Below are positions 3,072-11,646 of a DNA stretch of 14,607 bases, piece by piece. The notes beneath the pieces were generated by a model that saw only the letters and a program-made list of their open reading frames with translations, had not been told where the DNA came from and did no database searches. The position numbers and the translations under genes are program-made. The stretch comes from Candidatus Iainarchaeum sp. (lineage in GTDB: Archaea; Iainarchaeota; Iainarchaeia; Iainarchaeales; GCA-2688035), in NCBI GenBank assembly GCA_028713935.1, contig JAQTNI010000034.1, positions 1-14,607 on the forward strand, read 5' to 3'. The first letter of the stretch is position 1. Each line of letters begins with the position of its first letter.

Positions 3072-4343
3072 TTAGTTTTTTATAGAATATGCAAATTTGT
3101 TTCCTGTTTTTTCTCTTGAAATTAATCCTTTTTTAAGGAGGCTTGTTAAAATTTCTCTTATGTGCCTTTGGTTTCTTTTGCAAAAGTTTGAAATGTTCTC
3201 TGCGTTCAGTTCAATATTTTTCAGGCGTAATTCTTTAAGTTTTTGAAGATAGTGTATTGTTGCTTCATTTCTTGGATAAAATTCTAAGCCTTCAACATAT
3301 CTGTCCAGCACTTGCTTGAGCTTTTCTTGTTTTCTTTGCAAGCCAAAACCAATTTTTTCATAAAATTTTTGCTGGTTTTCTTTGCCAGTTATTCTTATTT
3401 CCCAGTTAATTGTTATTTCTTCAGCATTCTTGGCGTTTTTCTTGTAATTGCAAATTTTTGATTTTATTTCAAATTCTTCAAGAATTTTTTTGATATCAAT
3501 CAATATTTGGGGTTCTTGCCTTGTTTGCTCTTTCGGATAGGTTATTGGCGCTGTGAAGCTGACGCAGCGGCTATTGTGATGGTTGAAAACAGTTCCGTCA
3601 TCATCGTACAAGCGTTGCAGCAAAGCAATTTTGATTTTTTTATCCGTAGAACCCAAAAATATTTTCGGGATTCCTTGATATGGCTTGTAATTTTTGTTTC
3701 CATCTTCCAGCCCAATTGTTTTCAAAATAACGCCAATTATTTTTGGAAAAATCACGCAGGGAGCCCCACTTAATGAATGATGCCTTGCAAAATTAACTTC
3801 TCCAAAACAAGATTGCACTGCTTTTGTAAAACTTTCAATTTGCTCTTTTTCCCTGTTGAAATACCAAATTCTGCACTTGTTTTTTTCAATTCCCCCATCT
3901 CCCAAGACTGCGCCAACAACAAGCGCAAATTCGGGAGTTATTCTAAATGGCAGTTTTGGATTTTTTATGCTTTCTTTTGATTTCATTGTTTTTAATTCAA
4001 TTGTGTTTTTCTGAATCTGTTTTTCACTGATTTTCAAAATTCTTGCAATTTTTAACACTAAAGGCAAGGGCAATCCGCTTCTTTCAACGCGGTATCTCCT
4101 TGTGCTTTCGCCTCTCTTTAAACCCAAGGCTTTTGATATTTTTCCAAAAGAGCCATATTTCTTTTTCAATTCAAAAAAAATTTTTTCTCTGAATTCTGGC
4201 TTTAATTTTATTCTAACCTGCTCTTTGGGCAAATCAAACAAAGATATTTCTGCCATTTTTGAATCCCCAAAAATATTATTTTTTGTTATTTTAATTGCTT
4301 TTGAGACTCTGCGTTTCCACTGTTTTTCATCCAACAAGTTCAT
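3072..4343 (-). CDS. Free-standing double-motif LAGLIDADG homing endonuclease with N-terminal HTH and C-terminal winged-helix regions
   Basis: Two LAGLIDADG motifs about 100 aa apart: LVVGAVLGDGG (3891-3923) and LLQRLYDDDGT (3591-3626), both keeping the metal-binding acidic residue. N-terminal HTH-like FGKISKALGLKRGESTRRY. C-terminal wHTH-like HIREILTSLLKKGLISREKTGNKFAY. Own ATG 9 nt after the thiolase stop and own TAA 12 nt before the DUF35 ATG. Confidence 0.85.
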   Translation of the reverse strand: MNLLDEKQWKRRVSKAIKITKNNIFGDSKMAEISLFDLPKEQVRIKLKPEFREKIFFELKKKYGSFGKISKALGLKRGESTRRYRVERSGLPLPLVLKIARILKISEKQIQKNTIELKTMKSKESIKNPKLPFRITPEFALVVGAVLGDGGIEKNKCRIWYFNREKEQIESFTKAVQSCFGEVNFARHHSLSGAPCVIFPKIIGVILKTIGLEDGNKNYKPYQGIPKIFLGSTDKKIKIALLQRLYDDDGTVFNHHNSRCVSFTAPITYPKEQTRQEPQILIDIKKILEEFEIKSKICNYKKNAKNAEEITINWEIRITGKENQQKFYEKIGFGLQRKQEKLKQVLDRYVEGLEFYPRNEATIHYLQKLKELRLKNIELNAENISNFCKRNQRHIREILTSLLKKGLISREKTGNKFAYSIKN

Positions 4344-6568: not shown

Positions 6569-7135
6569 TTATCCTCTCCGCTGATTTTTTTTAATAATTA
6601 ACTTTGCTGTTCTCTCACGAGCCCTGTTAAATGTGTCCAATTTTTTGCTTCCAATAATGCTTGCCAAAGCGCTATTGTTAATCGCTTGTATAACAGGCAA
6701 CATGGCCCTAGAAATTTCTATTTCACTATTTGGATCCAGTGTTTCAAAATGAGTTATTTCCCTTTCCAAGGCAACCTTTAACCTTTGCCCTTTATCGCGT
6801 ACTGCAGTTGCAACAACATTCGGCAGATCATTAGCTGTTGTTTCTGTTACAATTGGGACATACTCTGCCAGAATCCTAAACAGTCCTTTTGCACTTTTTG
6901 TTGGAATCTTCCAAAAATGTGCTGCGTGCTCAATTAAAATAGAATTTGCCACTAACTGTCTGGCTTTTTGTTGTTCTTGTTCAGGAAGTTTGCGTGTCAA
7001 TCTATCAATTAAATGCAATTGCGATTCAAGAACTAAGTTAGGGCCTAGTTCAGGAGTGCCACTATGCCGAGCTGTTATTTGTCTTAATCTACTTGATAAT
7101 GCCCCTTTTGGCTTTTCTCTTTTAGGTTCAAGCAT
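6569..7135 (-). CDS. Hypothetical alpha-helical protein (188 aa), probable paralogue of 12543-13085
   Basis: The track ORF extends to 7171. I prefer the ATG at 7135 because GGAGG sits 9 nt upstream and ATGCTTGA (7128-7135) overlaps the reductase stop. TAA ends 2 nt before the HMG-CoA synthase ATG. No recognisable catalytic or binding motif. Confidence 0.7.
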   Translation of the reverse strand: MLEPKREKPKGALSSRLRQITARHSGTPELGPNLVLESQLHLIDRLTRKLPEQEQQKARQLVANSILIEHAAHFWKIPTKSAKGLFRILAEYVPIVTETTANDLPNVVATAVRDKGQRLKVALEREITHFETLDPNSEIEISRAMLPVIQAINNSALASIIGSKKLDTFNRARERTAKLIIKKNQRRG

Positions 7136-8423
7136 TTTGTTTTGCCTCCAGTATTTCTTTTGCCCTGTCAACCTTAATATTCTTTTCTGAAATCATTTTT
7201 TCAGCTACTTCGTCAATTTGTTTTCCTTTTGCGCCAGCAAGCACTGCAATGTTTTTTGCATGCAGCTTCATATGCCCGCGCTGCACTCCTTCTGTTGCCA
7301 GAACCCTCATTGCAGCAATGTTGTTTGCCAATCCAACACAAGCCATTATTTCAGCCAACTCCCCTGCACTTTTAACCCCAAGGATTTTCACTGCAATTTT
7401 TGCAATGGGATGTGATTTTGTTGCTCCTCCCACAAGGCCGACTGCAAGGGGCAATTCAATTTCTCCAACAAGATTTCCTTCTTTGTCCTTATAATATTTT
7501 GTCAATGGCTTGTATTTTCCCTTATTTTTCCAGCATGCAAAAGTATGCGCCCCTGCTTCAATTGCTCTCCAGTCCTGGCCAGTTGCAATTGCCACTGCAT
7601 CTATTCCGTTCATTATTCCCTTGTTGTGTGTGCAGGCGCGAAAAACATCTGCTTCCGCAAAGGCATATGCATTAAGGATTGCTTCAACAATTTCTTCTCC
7701 TTTCAAAGAGCTTTCCCTGAAACTTTCTTCCAGGGCTTTTTTTGAAAAAACGGCTTTTGCCTTTACTGTCCTGTAAACAGCCAGATTTGAAATTATTCTC
7801 AACAATACTTTTCCGCTGGTTATTTCCTCTATTTTTGGGGTTATTGCCTCGCACATTGTGTTGATTGCGTTTGCCCCCATTGCGTCCCTTACATCGACAA
7901 GCAATTCAACAATAAGCATTTTTCCTTTTATTGTTTTCAAAACCCTTGCTTCCAATTTTTTTGCCCCGCCCCCAAATTTTACTAGGGTTTGGTCCATTGA
8001 ATTTGCCTTTTCAAGCAATTCTTTTTTTGCCTTCAAAATTTTTTTTCTTGCCTCTTCAGGCTTTTTTATTCCAGTAACCTGAATCTGCCCAATCATCAAT
8101 GGTTCAGATGCCTTTGCTTCAAAGCCTTCTGAAGCCCTTGTAATCTGCGCTGCCTTGCTTGCAGCCGCAACAACGCTCGGCTCTTCCAATGCCATTGGCA
8201 CCAGATAATCTTTTTTGTTTATTCTGAAGTTTGTCGCTATTCCCAATGGAAGTTGCTGCACTGCAACAACATTTTCAATCATCCTGTTTGCCTGTTCAAA
8301 ATCAAGCGCTGCAAATTTTTTCAGCTGCAAGGTTTCTTCTTCGCTTAATTGTGCAAATTCCTTTACAATCGCCAAGCGTTCTTCCAAATTTTTCTTATAA
8401 AACTCTGAAATGTTTGATTCCAT
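7128..8423 (-). CDS. hmgA: HMG-CoA reductase, class II (soluble, bacterial/Thermoplasma/Archaeoglobus type)
   Basis: Class II signatures LPLGIATNFRINKKDYLVPMALEEPSVVAAASKAA, DAMGANAIN, THNKGIMNGIDA, ATEGVQRGHMKLHA. No membrane domain. The track start at 8432 is TTG; ATG at 8423 (MESNISEFYKK) is preferred. Confidence 0.92.
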   Translation of the reverse strand: MESNISEFYKKNLEERLAIVKEFAQLSEEETLQLKKFAALDFEQANRMIENVVAVQQLPLGIATNFRINKKDYLVPMALEEPSVVAAASKAAQITRASEGFEAKASEPLMIGQIQVTGIKKPEEARKKILKAKKELLEKANSMDQTLVKFGGGAKKLEARVLKTIKGKMLIVELLVDVRDAMGANAINTMCEAITPKIEEITSGKVLLRIISNLAVYRTVKAKAVFSKKALEESFRESSLKGEEIVEAILNAYAFAEADVFRACTHNKGIMNGIDAVAIATGQDWRAIEAGAHTFACWKNKGKYKPLTKYYKDKEGNLVGEIELPLAVGLVGGATKSHPIAKIAVKILGVKSAGELAEIMACVGLANNIAAMRVLATEGVQRGHMKLHAKNIAVLAGAKGKQIDEVAEKMISEKNIKVDRAKEILEAKQNA

Positions 8424-9850: not shown

Positions 9851-9992
9851 CATTATTTGAGAAAATAAAAAGTGAAACTGCAAATGCAATAAGGCAATCC
9901 TGACTTAAAAGTGCCCAAAGCCAATTAAAAAGCTTACTGTTTCAACGAAACAAAAATCGGCAATAAACGAATTCTTTGGTTTTTTTGGCTTT

Positions 9993-10087
9993 GTGGGGAG
10001 TTTTTCCCACGTTGTAAAAGCTGTGCTTTTACGACGCGCCGCAAACCAAAAGGTTTGCAACGAGGCTTTTTTGCGAGAGCAAAAAAG
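9993..10087. repeat. Array of four phased short hairpins (element copy A)
   Basis: GTGGGGA-gttt-TTCCCAC (9993-10010). GTTGTAAAAGC-tgt-GCTTTTACGAC (10011-10035). GCAAACC-aaaa-GGTTTGC (10041-10058). CTTTTTTGC-gaga-GCAAAAAAG (10066-10087). The last one ends 2 nt from the TAA of the 117-aa gene. Hairpin centres are spaced about 21-27 nt. Confidence 0.8.
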
Positions 10088-10089
10088 GC

Positions 10090-10443
10090 TTAATCTATTC
10101 TCAGGCTCATGTTCTCTGTTGTCTGGTCTTTTACTTCATTAAAGCTGCCTTCGTGTTCTGTCAAAATCAGCCTTACTGGCTCTTCTGTTGAGGAAGCAGC
10201 ATTTTTCGGCCAGATGTCAAAATAAAGTGTTTTTGTTTCCCCTGCCTTTAAGGATTCAATTCTTTTTATGTCACTGGTTTTATAGCCAACCCTGTCAAGG
10301 CTTAACCTTGAACCGAGCTTTATTTCAAGAGTCAGAATCGCATTTGCCTTGTCCTTGTTTGCAAGGTCAACTTTCAATTCAACAGGCCCTCTTCTCGCCA
10401 GAATCATCCTGAAAGGAGAAAACTTTGCATTAATTGCAATCAT
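10090..10443 (-). CDS. Hypothetical small cytoplasmic beta-sandwich-like protein (CARDB/NEW3-like pattern)
   Basis: 117 aa. ATG with GGGTGGA SD. Alternating hydrophobic pattern: VELKVDLANKDKANAILTLEIKL ... LKAGETKTLYFDIWP ... PVRLILTE. No signal peptide. The fold guess is by eye. Confidence 0.55.
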   Translation of the reverse strand: MIAINAKFSPFRMILARRGPVELKVDLANKDKANAILTLEIKLGSRLSLDRVGYKTSDIKRIESLKAGETKTLYFDIWPKNAASSTEEPVRLILTEHEGSFNEVKDQTTENMSLRID

Positions 10444-10607
10444 AAGTCCACCCGCTTAGCAAATTAAATCTGATTAATTTTATTATTTATATTTGGGCAT
10501 TAAGGGCTTTAAAACTTGCGTTTTCAAGAAGCGGAATTTTCCTGCAAAGCCTTAAATACCTCCTTGATAATACTCTTTAGGAAAAGGAAAAAGAATTTTT
10601 CCCAGGT
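10444..10607. promoter_or_regulatory. Divergent promoter region between the 117-aa gene and the wHTH gene
   Basis: A/T block 10461-10496 (aaattaaatctgattaattttattatttatattt) contains TATA-like sequences for either strand. First copy of the AGCGGAATTT direct repeat at 10530-10539. Confidence 0.4.
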
Positions 10608-11093
10608 GTGTTTTTGCAGAAAGCGGAATTTCCAGAATCCGGCCTTGTAAGAAAGACTTTCATTGTGAGACAGATGGATTTGCCTCCAAGCGTAAAGCTC
10701 ACAAAGCGTTCTCTCCTGAGATGGTTTGCGCTTTCCTTCGGTTTAATCAGCAGTGGTGAATCAAGGGACACTGTTCTGCTTGTCCTGGATGCCTTGTTTT
10801 TCCTTCTTTTGTCTTCAAAATCAAGCCCTTCTACAACAGATGTCCAGGCCTGCATAAAGGAAAAATTCCAGAAAAAAATTTCCGAAAAGCTCATCCGCTA
10901 TCATCTTAACAGGCTTATTGAATCAGGCCTGCTTGTGCGCAGAAAAGCAAGGTATTTCATCAACAACAACCCTTATGCAGAGCCGAACAATCTCAAAGAG
11001 TCTTTTGTGCACTGGTTTAGGCAGCCTGCAAACACTGCAATGTCTGACATTGAAACAGTCCTTGGCTCTCTTTCGGAAGCCTACAAAAAATAA
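10608..11093 (+). CDS. Winged-helix DNA-binding protein (putative transcription regulator)
   Basis: wHTH pattern ISEKLIRYHLNRLIESGLLVRRKARYFI. Start uncertain: GTG 10608, TTG 10614 (AGGTG 5 nt upstream) or ATG 10674. TAA at 11091-11093. Confidence 0.6.
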   Translation: MFLQKAEFPESGLVRKTFIVRQMDLPPSVKLTKRSLLRWFALSFGLISSGESRDTVLLVLDALFFLLLSSKSSPSTTDVQACIKEKFQKKISEKLIRYHLNRLIESGLLVRRKARYFINNNPYAEPNNLKESFVHWFRQPANTAMSDIETVLGSLSEAYKK

Positions 11094-11099
11094 GCCTTT

Positions 11100-11289
11100 C
11101 GAAGCGCTCATTGAGCCTTTTTGCTCCTGCAAAAAGCTTCGGGAAAATGCTTCGCAGTATTCGCTTTCGAAAGCCTCGTTGCAAAGCTTCGCTTTGCGAC
11201 GCACAATGCAAACAAAGTTTGCGTTGCATCGGAAAGCATTGCTTTCCAATGTCGCAAACCGCAAGGTTTGCAATGTGGGAAAATACTCG
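11100..11289. repeat. Array of six or more phased short hairpins (element copy B, inverted relative to copy A)
   Basis: CTTTTTGC-tcct-GCAAAAAG (11117-11136). GCTTTCGAAAGC (11163-11174). CGTTGCAAAGC-ttc-GCTTTGCGACG (11177-11201). CAATGCAAAC-aaa-GTTTGCGTTG (11204-11226). GGAAAGC-att-GCTTTCC (11231-11247). GCAAACC-gcaa-GGTTTGC (11254-11271), then GTGGGAAAA. The exact 16-mer AAAGCCTCGTTGCAAA (11170-11185) is the reverse complement of 10054-10069. Confidence 0.8.
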
Positions 11290-11292
11290 CGG

Positions 11293-11559
11293 TTAATCAA
11301 TTGCATTTGGCCAGTGCTGGATGCCTGTTGCAATGTCCTTGTAGCACAAATCCCTGTTCTGCAAATTTGAGATTTTTTCGCAGAGCTCTGTGCTTTTGCT
11401 TATTGTCGCTGTTTCCCAGTAACATTGCTCTTTTGTTTCCTGTGAAGAAATTTTTTCGCAGATTTCCGGTTTTGCATAATCTGGCGAGCCAAGGCAGCCC
11501 ATTGTAAGGAGAAGGCCTATTGCTGCAATTATTGCAATTGAAAAAATTTTTTTCTTCAT
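11293..11559 (-). CDS. Small secreted Cys-repeat protein, probable lipoprotein
   Basis: The internal ATG at 11559 gives MKKKIFSIAIIAAIGLLLTMGC, a signal peptide with a lipobox-like LTMGC. Two internal repeats: EICEKISSQETKEQCYWE and ELCEKISNLQNRDLCYKD. The track start at 11637 would leave only 9 nt before the divergent dtdA. Confidence 0.6.
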   Translation of the reverse strand: MKKKIFSIAIIAAIGLLLTMGCLGSPDYAKPEICEKISSQETKEQCYWETATISKSTELCEKISNLQNRDLCYKDIATGIQHWPNAID

Positions 11560-11646
11560 TTTAATAATGCCTTTTTTGTTTTGGTTCAATTCCAGAATTT
11601 TTGGTTCAAACATGAGTTTTAATCCATTTTTATCCATAATTTTTGC

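Follow-up and report, generated by a model that had tools for sequence, protein, structure and literature searches.

Mosaic arrays of short palindromic modules behind two stop codons in an Iainarchaeota contig

Two hairpin arrays between genes

The window analysed here, the whole stretch of DNA under study, is one complete contig of 14.6 kb with a G+C content of about 40%. It carries mevalonate-pathway genes for thiolase, HMG-CoA synthase, a DUF35-type protein and HMG-CoA reductase, together with genes for an archaeal D-aminoacyl-tRNA deacylase (DtdA), GGPP synthase and NAD kinase, and for two of its proteins the best homologues carry the label Candidatus Diapherotrites or Candidatus ainarchaeum. 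The host is accordingly an archaeon of the Iainarchaeota (Diapherotrites, DPANN). Two blocks of palindromic sequence, termed arrays A and B, lie immediately behind stop codons (Table 1). Searches of Pfam and NCBIfam assigned no function to the flanking 117-, 161- and 114-aa proteins, and syntenic relatives retain the order oxidoreductase, 117-aa, 161-aa, ..., deacylase. A conserved palindrome upstream of the 161-aa gene, separate from the arrays, has the look of an operator.

Table 1. Positions of the two arrays, their modules and the adjoining genes in the window
Feature	Position	Strand	Remarks
Array A	9987-10089		inserted directly after TAA 10090-10092 (- strand) of 117-aa gene
Tail hairpin GTGGGGAGTTTTTCCCAC	9993-10010		reverse complement includes GTGGGAAAAAC
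Core unit CGTTGTAAAAGC-TGT-GCTTTTACGACG	10010-10036	+	T.G on +; 28.3 bits on +; inverted partner of 10037-10062
Core unit CGTTGCAAACC-TTTT-GGTTTGCGGCG	10037-10062	-	read on -; T.G on -; 36.9 bits on -
T-rich hairpin GGCTTTTTTGC-GAGA-GCAAAAAAGGC	10064-10089		T6 on both strands; abuts stop codon
117-aa gene	10090-10443	-	conserved; function not assigned by profiles; array A after its stop
161-aa gene	10608-11093	+	conserved, Iainarchaeota-specific; weak winged-helix match; array B after its stop
Array B	11094-11292		199-nt block of palindromic modules between two convergent stops
Frame module GCCTTTCGAAGCGCTC	11094-11109	+	directly 3' of stop; partner of 11163-11176
T-rich hairpin CTTTTTGC-TCCT-GCAAAAAG	11117-11136		perfect 8-bp stem; T5 on both strands
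Palindromic module GCTTTCGAAAGCCT	11163-11176		left flank of core units
Core unit CGTTGCAAAGC-TTC-GCTTTGCGACG	11177-11201	+	T.G at pair 8 on +; covariance-model 38.9 bits
Core unit CAATGCAAAC-AAA-GTTTGCGTTG	11204-11226	+	T.G on +; covariance-model 28.3 bits
Core unit CATCGGAAAGC-ATT-GCTTTCCAATG	11227-11251	-	C.A on +, T.G on -; 35.8 bits on -
Core unit (G)TCGCAAACC-GCAA-GGTTTGCAATG	11252-11275	-	C.A on +, T.G on -; 23.2 bits on -
Tail TGGGAAAATACTCGCGG	11276-11292	+	its TGGGAAAA motif closes core block
114-aa gene	11293-11637	-	convergent to 161-aa gene; N-terminus signal-peptide-like

Array B fits exactly between TAA at 11091-11093 (161-aa gene) and TTA at 11293-11295 (114-aa gene). The initial annotation of this DNA had proposed that six or more hairpins fill the 199 nt, and RNA folding bears this out: about eight helices form on the + strand (MFE -80.2 kcal/mol, z = -5.07, with none of 200 shuffles as good), and the - strand folds nearly as well (MFE -78.8 kcal/mol, z = -4.72), giving z of about -5 on both. 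Near-equal folding of the two strands is expected of a palindrome at the DNA level. The corresponding values for array A are MFE -51.7 and z = -4.22. Perfect hairpins with a stem of at least 7 bp and a loop of 3-6 nt number 19 in the window, and seven of these fall inside the 292 nt of the arrays (binomial P = 5e-8).

Both arrays are also richer in G+C than their surroundings, as had been proposed, at about 48% (48.2% in B, 47.3% in the core of A) compared with 39.7% for the window and 24-38% for other spacers. Five overlapping open reading frames across B (10918-11370 on +, 10923-11333 on -, 11017-11229 on -, 11111-11296 on + and 11121-11507 on +) were rightly regarded as spurious. An Rfam search of the whole window at E<=1, which had been recommended as a check, returned nothing in the arrays, and the arrays of four related loci described below (L010, L012, L015 and L040) had no match at E<=0.1. 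Scans of the window for tRNA and tmRNA genes found none, Tandem Repeats Finder found no tandem array, and a scan for bacterial promoters and terminators found no hairpin-plus-T-run site in either array. The region is neither a gene nor a known RNA.

Array B had been described as an inverted, related copy of array A, each with the same orientation relative to the gene that it follows. This holds, and it is strengthened by the empty sites and recurring modules presented below. A T-rich hairpin lies near each stop, at 11117-11136 in B and at 10066-10087 in A (stem CTTTTTTGC-GAGA-GCAAAAAAG), and the two are 89% complementary. Positions 11170-11185 form an exact 16-mer match to the reverse complement of 10054-10069, and this match extends to 20 nt at 95%. 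Both arrays contain the hairpin GCAAACC-N4-GGTTTGCAA (26 nt at 85%), and both terminate with GTGGGAAAA. The similarity goes beyond the 16-mer to a collinear frame of modules.

Two of the original statements need to be narrowed. The 16-mer was held to be very unlikely by chance, and it is indeed rare: when both regions were shuffled with dinucleotides preserved, in runs of 300 and 1000, the longest match reached 16 only once and was otherwise 15 or less. It is nevertheless less extreme than the naive value of 4^-16, because both regions are rich in A/T runs. The two arrays were also said to match in order, which is true of the frame (T-rich hairpin, AAAGCCT, core, GTGGGAAAA) but not of the individual core hairpins, since the GCAAACC hairpin is the second in A, as the reverse complement, and the last in B. 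Collinearity is limited to the frame because A and B are mosaics of interchangeable modules rather than two copies of one fixed element.

The core of array A is one doublet of units (10010-10062), and that of B consists of two nested doublets (11177-11275, with mismatches in the order TG, TG, CA, CA on the + strand). The TGGGAAAA motif that closes the core of B follows the core units in A too. A 5-nt direct repeat, GGCTT, lies at either end of array A (9987-9991 and 10087-10091) and may or may not be a target duplication. An independent Logan contig carries an identical array A; for the interior of B, the assembly of the window is the sole support. In Logan, the contigs of the window organism break off at 11121 and resume at 11329 or 11357; such breaks at both edges of B fit repeated or polymorphic sequence without proving it.

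A family of oriented palindromic units

The core units are a family in both sequence and structure. A unit of about 25 nt (25-26 nt) reads C-N-T-T-G-C-A-A-A-S-C, a loop of 3-4 nt, and G-S-T-T-T-G-C-G-A-N-G, with a stem of 10-12 bp. The arms TTGCAAA and TTTGCGA are near-invariant and the loops are variable. Units always occur as abutting inverted doublets, in which the first carries T.G and the second C.A on the same strand, with a spacing of 0-3 nt and about 70% likeness between units. This arrangement might recall a CRISPR array, a reading that we rejected on the grounds of this spacing and likeness and of the lack of spacers, cas genes and a tandem repeat.

For a closer comparison, 14 units (13 of them distinct) from the window and three other loci were aligned in the same orientation. 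Among the 13 distinct units 97% of alignment cells are paired, a figure that is partly circular because the units were chosen by a hairpin finder; the covariation and the invariant mismatch described here are free of this circularity. Changes on both sides occur at five of 11 stem pairs, and compensatory changes are seen at two of them, pair 2 (GC, CG or AU) and pair 10 (CG or GC). The observed covariation was reached by none of 500 shuffles and collapses when the partners are slid against each other. It is no proof of structural selection, because intrastrand repair keeps the arms of a palindrome complementary.

All 13 distinct units carry T.G, or C.A as read on the opposite strand, at the eighth pair counted from the loop; this pair is never Watson-Crick, so that each unit has an orientation. 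Besides the core units, the arrays use accessory modules, which comprise the T-rich hairpins (T5-T6 on both strands), a TTCGAA-centred palindrome (GCCTTTCGAAGCG / GCTTTCGAAAGCC) and the TGGGAAAA tail. A replication origin of ORB type was also considered on account of GTGGGAAAA...CCCCAC and dropped; no orc1/cdc6 gene or AT-rich unwinding element is present, and relatives lack the motif.

Filled and empty sites, and dispersal in other genomes

The syntenic loci of relatives were fetched by means of the deacylase and the 161-aa protein. The flanking genes are about 80-84% identical between the window and L032, L033, L034 and L040. At the site of array A, five loci (L033, L034/L036, L018, L022 and L041) are empty: a promoter-like conserved stretch, CGATTTTTG...AAGCTTTTTA, comes directly after the stop codon of the 117-aa gene, and in the window this stretch sits about 95-113 nt further away. 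At the site of array B, the gene pair is retained in two relatives, L032 and L034, and these read TAG-TTA or TAG-TCA with 0 nt between the convergent stops, compared with 199 nt in the window. In the 161-aa gene, the DNA of these empty-site relatives is 81-84% identical to that of the window. Judged from these alignments, arrays A and B are insertions relative to the orthologous sites, and the presence and absence could alternatively reflect precise deletions. The pattern and covariance-model searches found no unit in about 85 kb of distinct sequence from the syntenic relatives.

In all fetched syntenic relatives but one, the 117-aa stop leads straight into the conserved downstream stretch; the exception, and the most informative locus, is L040, which holds part of the B frame. 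This Logan contig derives from a sample in which contigs of the window organism also occur, and its homologue of the 161-aa protein shows 89% sequence identity. There, the same 16-mer GCCTTTCGAAGCGCTC follows the TAA of the orthologous gene, and the frame reads TAA-GCCTTTCGAAGCGCTC-(11 nt)-GCTTTCGAAAGCCT/TGGGAAA. The T-hairpin segment and the 99-nt block of four core units are missing, and the site of the core block is unoccupied because GCTTTCGAAAGCCT joins TGGGAAA directly, so that the TGGGAAAA motif stands directly behind AGCCT. This AGCCT/TGGGAAA junction, unoccupied in L040, brackets the core block in both arrays of the window and, as TGGAAAAA, in L012 (L012b). In the A spacer of L040 a core doublet occurs at a different place, where the contig ends, and the position of array A itself is empty. 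Close relatives differ by the presence or absence of whole modules.

The synteny of the relatives also bears on a composite transposon, in which A and B would be inverted ends around the 117-aa and 161-aa genes. This candidate was rejected because the same gene pair is syntenic in all array-free relatives.

A covariance-model search for further copies had been recommended, and the modules do recur at other Iainarchaeota loci. When GTDB was scanned with the core-unit pattern, at one genome per species, matches were obtained in L010 and L012 (two contigs, Ca. ainarchaeum sp. STB_123) and in L015 (a Ca. Iainarchaeum MAG from Lac Pavin), whose hairpin clusters are built from the same modules as the window arrays. 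Eleven bacterial matches were taken as chance because they comprise one unit each, retrieved by the pattern itself. The pattern and the covariance model together give six units in the 14.6-kb window, three in L010, four in L012, two in L015 and one or two in L040, counts (10-11 in the four other loci) that cover about 36 kb of array-bearing genomes. In STB_123 there are several arrays per 6-8 kb.

The genomic sites of these clusters vary. One array lies after a UbiA gene, another between a 176-aa gene and tgt, a third between divergent Ham1 and GH130 genes (L012 3379-3511) and a fourth beside tRNA-Leu(CAA), a gene whose 107-nt intron holds two accessory hairpins. Exact words link the loci, the longest being a 38-mer common to L010 and L015, from genomes of 43% and 53% G+C, and a 30-mer common to L040 and L012. 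Words shared with the window are a 22-mer between B and L010 (in core unit 11252-11275), an 18-mer between A and L012 (in core unit 10037-10062; L012b) and the 17-mer GAAAGCCTCGTTGCAAA between B and L012, from the region of the GCTTTCGAAAGCCT module. Within such matches between arrays the stems are kept and the loops differ. By these matches, at least three further assemblies, two Iainarchaeota MAGs and one Logan contig, carry the units at unrelated loci.

Searches of wider collections were also made. In JGI metagenomes the core-unit pattern retrieved eight loci, all single matches of high G+C or bacterial appearance and none in arrays. Three patterns run against IMG/VR gave 0, 2 and 8 loci, all of them singletons without doublets and hence no sign of a viral carrier, and a blastn search of PLSDB with array B gave no match. 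Among the open reading frames scanned in the window, L010 and L012, no transposase or other candidate mobilising gene was seen, and the loci showed neither TnpA nor TnpB. In the literature searched, hairpin arrays are not described for Iainarchaeota or Diapherotrites.

Interpretation and comparison with known repeats

We consider it probable, with moderate confidence, that A and B are non-autonomous palindromic repeats of the REP/REPIN/BIME kind, restricted to the lineage and present in some Iainarchaeota genomes, with B as a recent insertion. Modules of this kind would insert into permissive spacer DNA and nest inside one another, giving rise to mosaic arrays; in the window, the insertion points would be the positions immediately after two stop codons. 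By analogy with REPs, HUH Y1 enzymes and the ends of IS200/IS605 elements, spread may depend on a trans-acting activity that recognises an extruded single-strand hairpin. The invariant TTGCAAA and TTTGCGA arms and the T.G mismatch are candidate recognition features, much as HUH Y1 enzymes act on REPs. After insertion, the T5-T6 runs and stable stems would probably form bidirectional 3'-end structures, tolerated or of slight use, that separate closely spaced genes, and in this secondary way the arrays may act as 3'-end or terminator structures.

A bolder form of this reading can be put forward only tentatively. It holds that the arrays are an archaeal counterpart of REPINs, in which T.G doublets would be copied after stop codons and at AGCCT/TGGGAAA junctions by a putative hairpin-recognising enzyme, even into tRNA introns, and across Iainarchaeota of differing G+C content.

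The arrays could instead be host-selected, non-mobile 3'-end elements, either bidirectional terminators or insulators or hairpins that stabilise mRNA, which would have arisen in spacers behind stop codons or been copied there, with the T5-T6 runs acting as oligo-T terminators and the stems blocking 3'-5' decay or read-through into convergent genes. Both arrays do open right after a stop codon with a T5 or T6 hairpin that serves both strands, and B separates convergent genes that abut in relatives. A bacterial precedent points the same way, since REPs too lie preferentially 3' of genes and between genes that converge (PMC3733652). However, relatives manage without arrays at the same sites, and arrays are also found between divergent gene starts and in a tRNA intron. 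The core units carry no T-run, and the near-identical units in different genomes are left unexplained. Moreover, an efficient terminator at the T-rich hairpin of A would leave the other hairpins of that array untranscribed, because the T6 run precedes them. We regard this explanation of whole arrays as unlikely; a terminator or insulator role for the T-rich hairpin alone is possible.

The sequence conservation of the arms, which goes beyond pairing alone, and the palindromic hexamer TTGCAA suggest another explanation, that the arrays are clustered TTGCAA/TCGCAA half-sites in alternating orientation for a DNA-binding protein. The binder might be a nucleoid, segregation or regulatory protein, for example the winged-helix-like 161-aa protein. 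Yet the 161-aa gene is kept in all relatives, which have no arrays, and elsewhere the arrays adjoin unrelated genes. The compensatory changes at pairs 2 and 10 favour intrastrand pairing over duplex half-sites, and the palindrome upstream of the 161-aa gene already offers an operator-like site. Such a function is quite unlikely on these grounds.

It is very improbable that the region is a structured non-coding RNA, whether a small RNA or a cis-regulatory 3'UTR element that needs tandem stem-loops, even though its folding is strongly non-random and GNRA-type loops (GCAA, GAAA) occur among the hairpins. The initial annotation had raised the idea of a discrete small RNA, and this finds no support: there is no Rfam match, the arrays are not conserved at the orthologous positions of relatives, the two strands fold almost equally, the composition is mosaic and unit orientation is mixed within one array. 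An assembly artefact such as a chimeric join of repeats, which the Logan contig breaks around B might suggest, is scarcely credible given the identical array A in an independent assembly, the first 28 nt of B in L003, the B frame in L040 and the same units in NCBI MAGs of other projects.

If the arrays are indeed REP-like repeats, they bear on a classic yet poorly understood component of bacterial genomes, one whose spread there is tied to RAYT transposases. The Iainarchaeota family, with small, gene-dense DPANN genomes, clean pairs of filled and empty sites, nested polymorphism of modules and strongly conserved stem features, would offer a tractable system for studying how palindromes move and a lead to a new hairpin-specific enzyme. 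The arrays also call for caution in MAG assembly and gene calling, since contigs are interrupted there and spurious open reading frames arise. Even if the arrays are merely tolerated junk, this value for annotation remains.

Several known systems resemble the arrays in part. Like intrinsic terminators and the oligo-T terminators of archaea, the T-rich hairpin by each stop offers T5-T6 on both strands. An intrinsic terminator is a G+C-rich hairpin followed by a T or U run, whereas here the T-runs lie within the stem rather than behind it, only one hairpin per array has them and the core units have none. Among selfish palindromes of organelles, those of Volvox organelles, the double-hairpin elements of fungal mitochondria and the GC clusters of yeast likewise form families of short, spacer-filling hairpins with conserved stems, variable loops and nested insertions, although their hosts and sequences are unrelated to those described here.

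Elements of the IS200/IS605 type have ends defined by hairpins, lack terminal inverted repeats and target duplications, and insert beside a short specific sequence; their non-autonomous derivatives include the palindrome-associated transposable elements (PATEs) of haloarchaea. The core blocks are similar in that they lie between AGCCT and TGGGAAAA (TGG(G)AAAA) in three arrays and in that both arrays follow TAA. Unlike the end hairpins of IS200/IS605, which are co-oriented and flank a longer body, the array hairpins are inverted and adjacent. Repeats of the MITE type are dense in some DPANN genomes according to a census (PMC11602168), and the arrays resemble them as short, non-coding, intergenic and lineage-specific repeats. 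Terminal inverted repeats and target-site duplications are, in contrast, typical of classical MITEs. In the arrays neither is clear-cut: A and B do not end in inverted repeats, no direct repeat flanks B, and the 5-nt GGCTT at A, the sole candidate, is ambiguous.

Bacterial REP sequences, which typically occur in more than 100 copies per genome dispersed in extragenic DNA, provide a close comparison. The arrays depart from them in their DPANN archaeal host, in their A/T-rich stems with tri- or tetraloops and in units that abut without spacers. In tagged REPs, one end of the palindrome bears an unpaired GTAG or CGTC (PMC3733652). No GTAG occurs in the core units, and their CGT(T/C) lies in the stem, paired with (G/A)ACG. 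An assignment to the CGTC-tagged REPs, suggested by units that read CGTC... on one strand, was rejected because this tag is base-paired. RAYT classes have been reported from bacteria only, and from archaea just IS200-type Y1 transposases and no RAYTs are reported (PMC6006769); no RAYT was seen among the open reading frames scanned in the window, L010 and L012. Because the unpaired tag is missing, we class the units as working like REP and BIME sequences rather than as members of those families. REP, BIME and REPIN sequences are likewise imperfect palindromes of 20-40 nt (Di Nocera et al. 2013, PMC3733652; Bertels & Rainey 2011, PMC3116915), and in both cases a conserved non-Watson-Crick position orients each unit. 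Both form inverted, head-to-head doublets and larger mosaic clusters, with doublet partners that differ at a few stem pairs ('heterodimers'), and both are extragenic, often just 3' of genes or between convergent genes, with a presence that varies among related genomes.

Array B, the stop codon of the 161-aa gene and assembly breaks

In all six relatives compared that lack array B, the hairpin modules downstream of the 161-aa gene (L032, L033, L034, L022, L039 and L041), this gene ends in TAG. Its stop codon is TAA in both carriers of the flanking modules of the array (the B frame), namely the window (11091-11093) and the Logan contig L040 from a relative. The modules may have inserted either inside the stop codon, between TA and G, or following TAA.

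The hairpin arrays appear to be points where assemblies break. Logan contigs from the same organism as the window end 28 nt inside array B (11121) and restart 37-65 nt beyond it (11329/11357), and the terminus of L040 (position 1) falls within a core doublet, a pair of abutting inverted ~25-nt imperfect palindromes. Such breaks may also be a cause of the short contigs (1-6 kb) in close relatives.

Hairpin modules at a tRNA-Leu gene, and a tRNA on L012

In Ca. ainarchaeum sp. STB_123, a tRNA intron seems to have been invaded by the repeat family. On contig L010, the intron of the tRNA-Leu(CAA) gene holds a pair of accessory hairpin modules, GGCCTTTCTTTGGAAAAGAAAGCC and CAATTTGC-TCC-GCAAATTG, the latter followed by a TGGGAAAG motif, and the 3′ end of this tRNA gene adjoins a core doublet array. 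On L012, a second contig of this organism with hairpin clusters, ARAGORN calls the tRNA as tRNA-Phe with a 34-nt intron and an AAA anticodon; because this anticodon is implausible, the identity of the tRNA is uncertain.

Features other than the hairpin modules.
Feature	Location	Strand	Remarks
423-aa ORF	window 3072-4343	-	between thiolase and DUF35 genes
200-aa ORF	window 6569-7171	-	between HMG-CoA synthase and HMG-CoA reductase
Conserved stretch CGATTTTTGTTTCGTTGAAACAGTAAGCTTTTTAATTGGCTT	window 9930-9976	- (sense)	
Palindrome	window 10586-10602; L033 1552-1574; L034 1182-1204; L039 494-510		just 5′ of 161-aa gene start
tRNA-Leu(CAA)	L010 1778-1970	-	intron 107 nt, position 39/40
tRNA	L012 1598-1719	-	Rfam, 45 bits

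Conserved elements near the 161-aa and 117-aa genes

For the palindrome preceding the winged-helix-like 161-aa gene, the window has GGAAAAAGAATTTTTCC, where relatives have AAAGGAAAAA-CAA-TTTTTCCTTT. This palindrome is kept across all close relatives, is probably an operator or promoter element of the gene, and is unrelated to the hairpin arrays. Similarly kept, across all relatives, is the stretch that separates the 117-aa gene from the oxidoreductase/mevalonate operon, which contains a small conserved hairpin (GTTTC-GTT-GAAAC) and is likely a BRE/TATA promoter region.

Additional ORFs among the mevalonate genes

In the 423-aa ORF, a LAGLIDADG_3 domain occurs together with a TrmB-like winged helix, and NCBIfam gives weak matches of the intein type. 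The ORF looks like a free-standing homing-endonuclease-like insertion; at its site, the relatives L018 and L022 have merely a 51-55-aa ORF. Inteins are present in the GGPP synthase and PPDK genes of L018. The 200-aa ORF, with no match in Pfam or NCBIfam, is a further insertion into the mevalonate operon that is specific to the lineage, its two neighboring genes being adjacent in L018 and L022 (~20 nt between).
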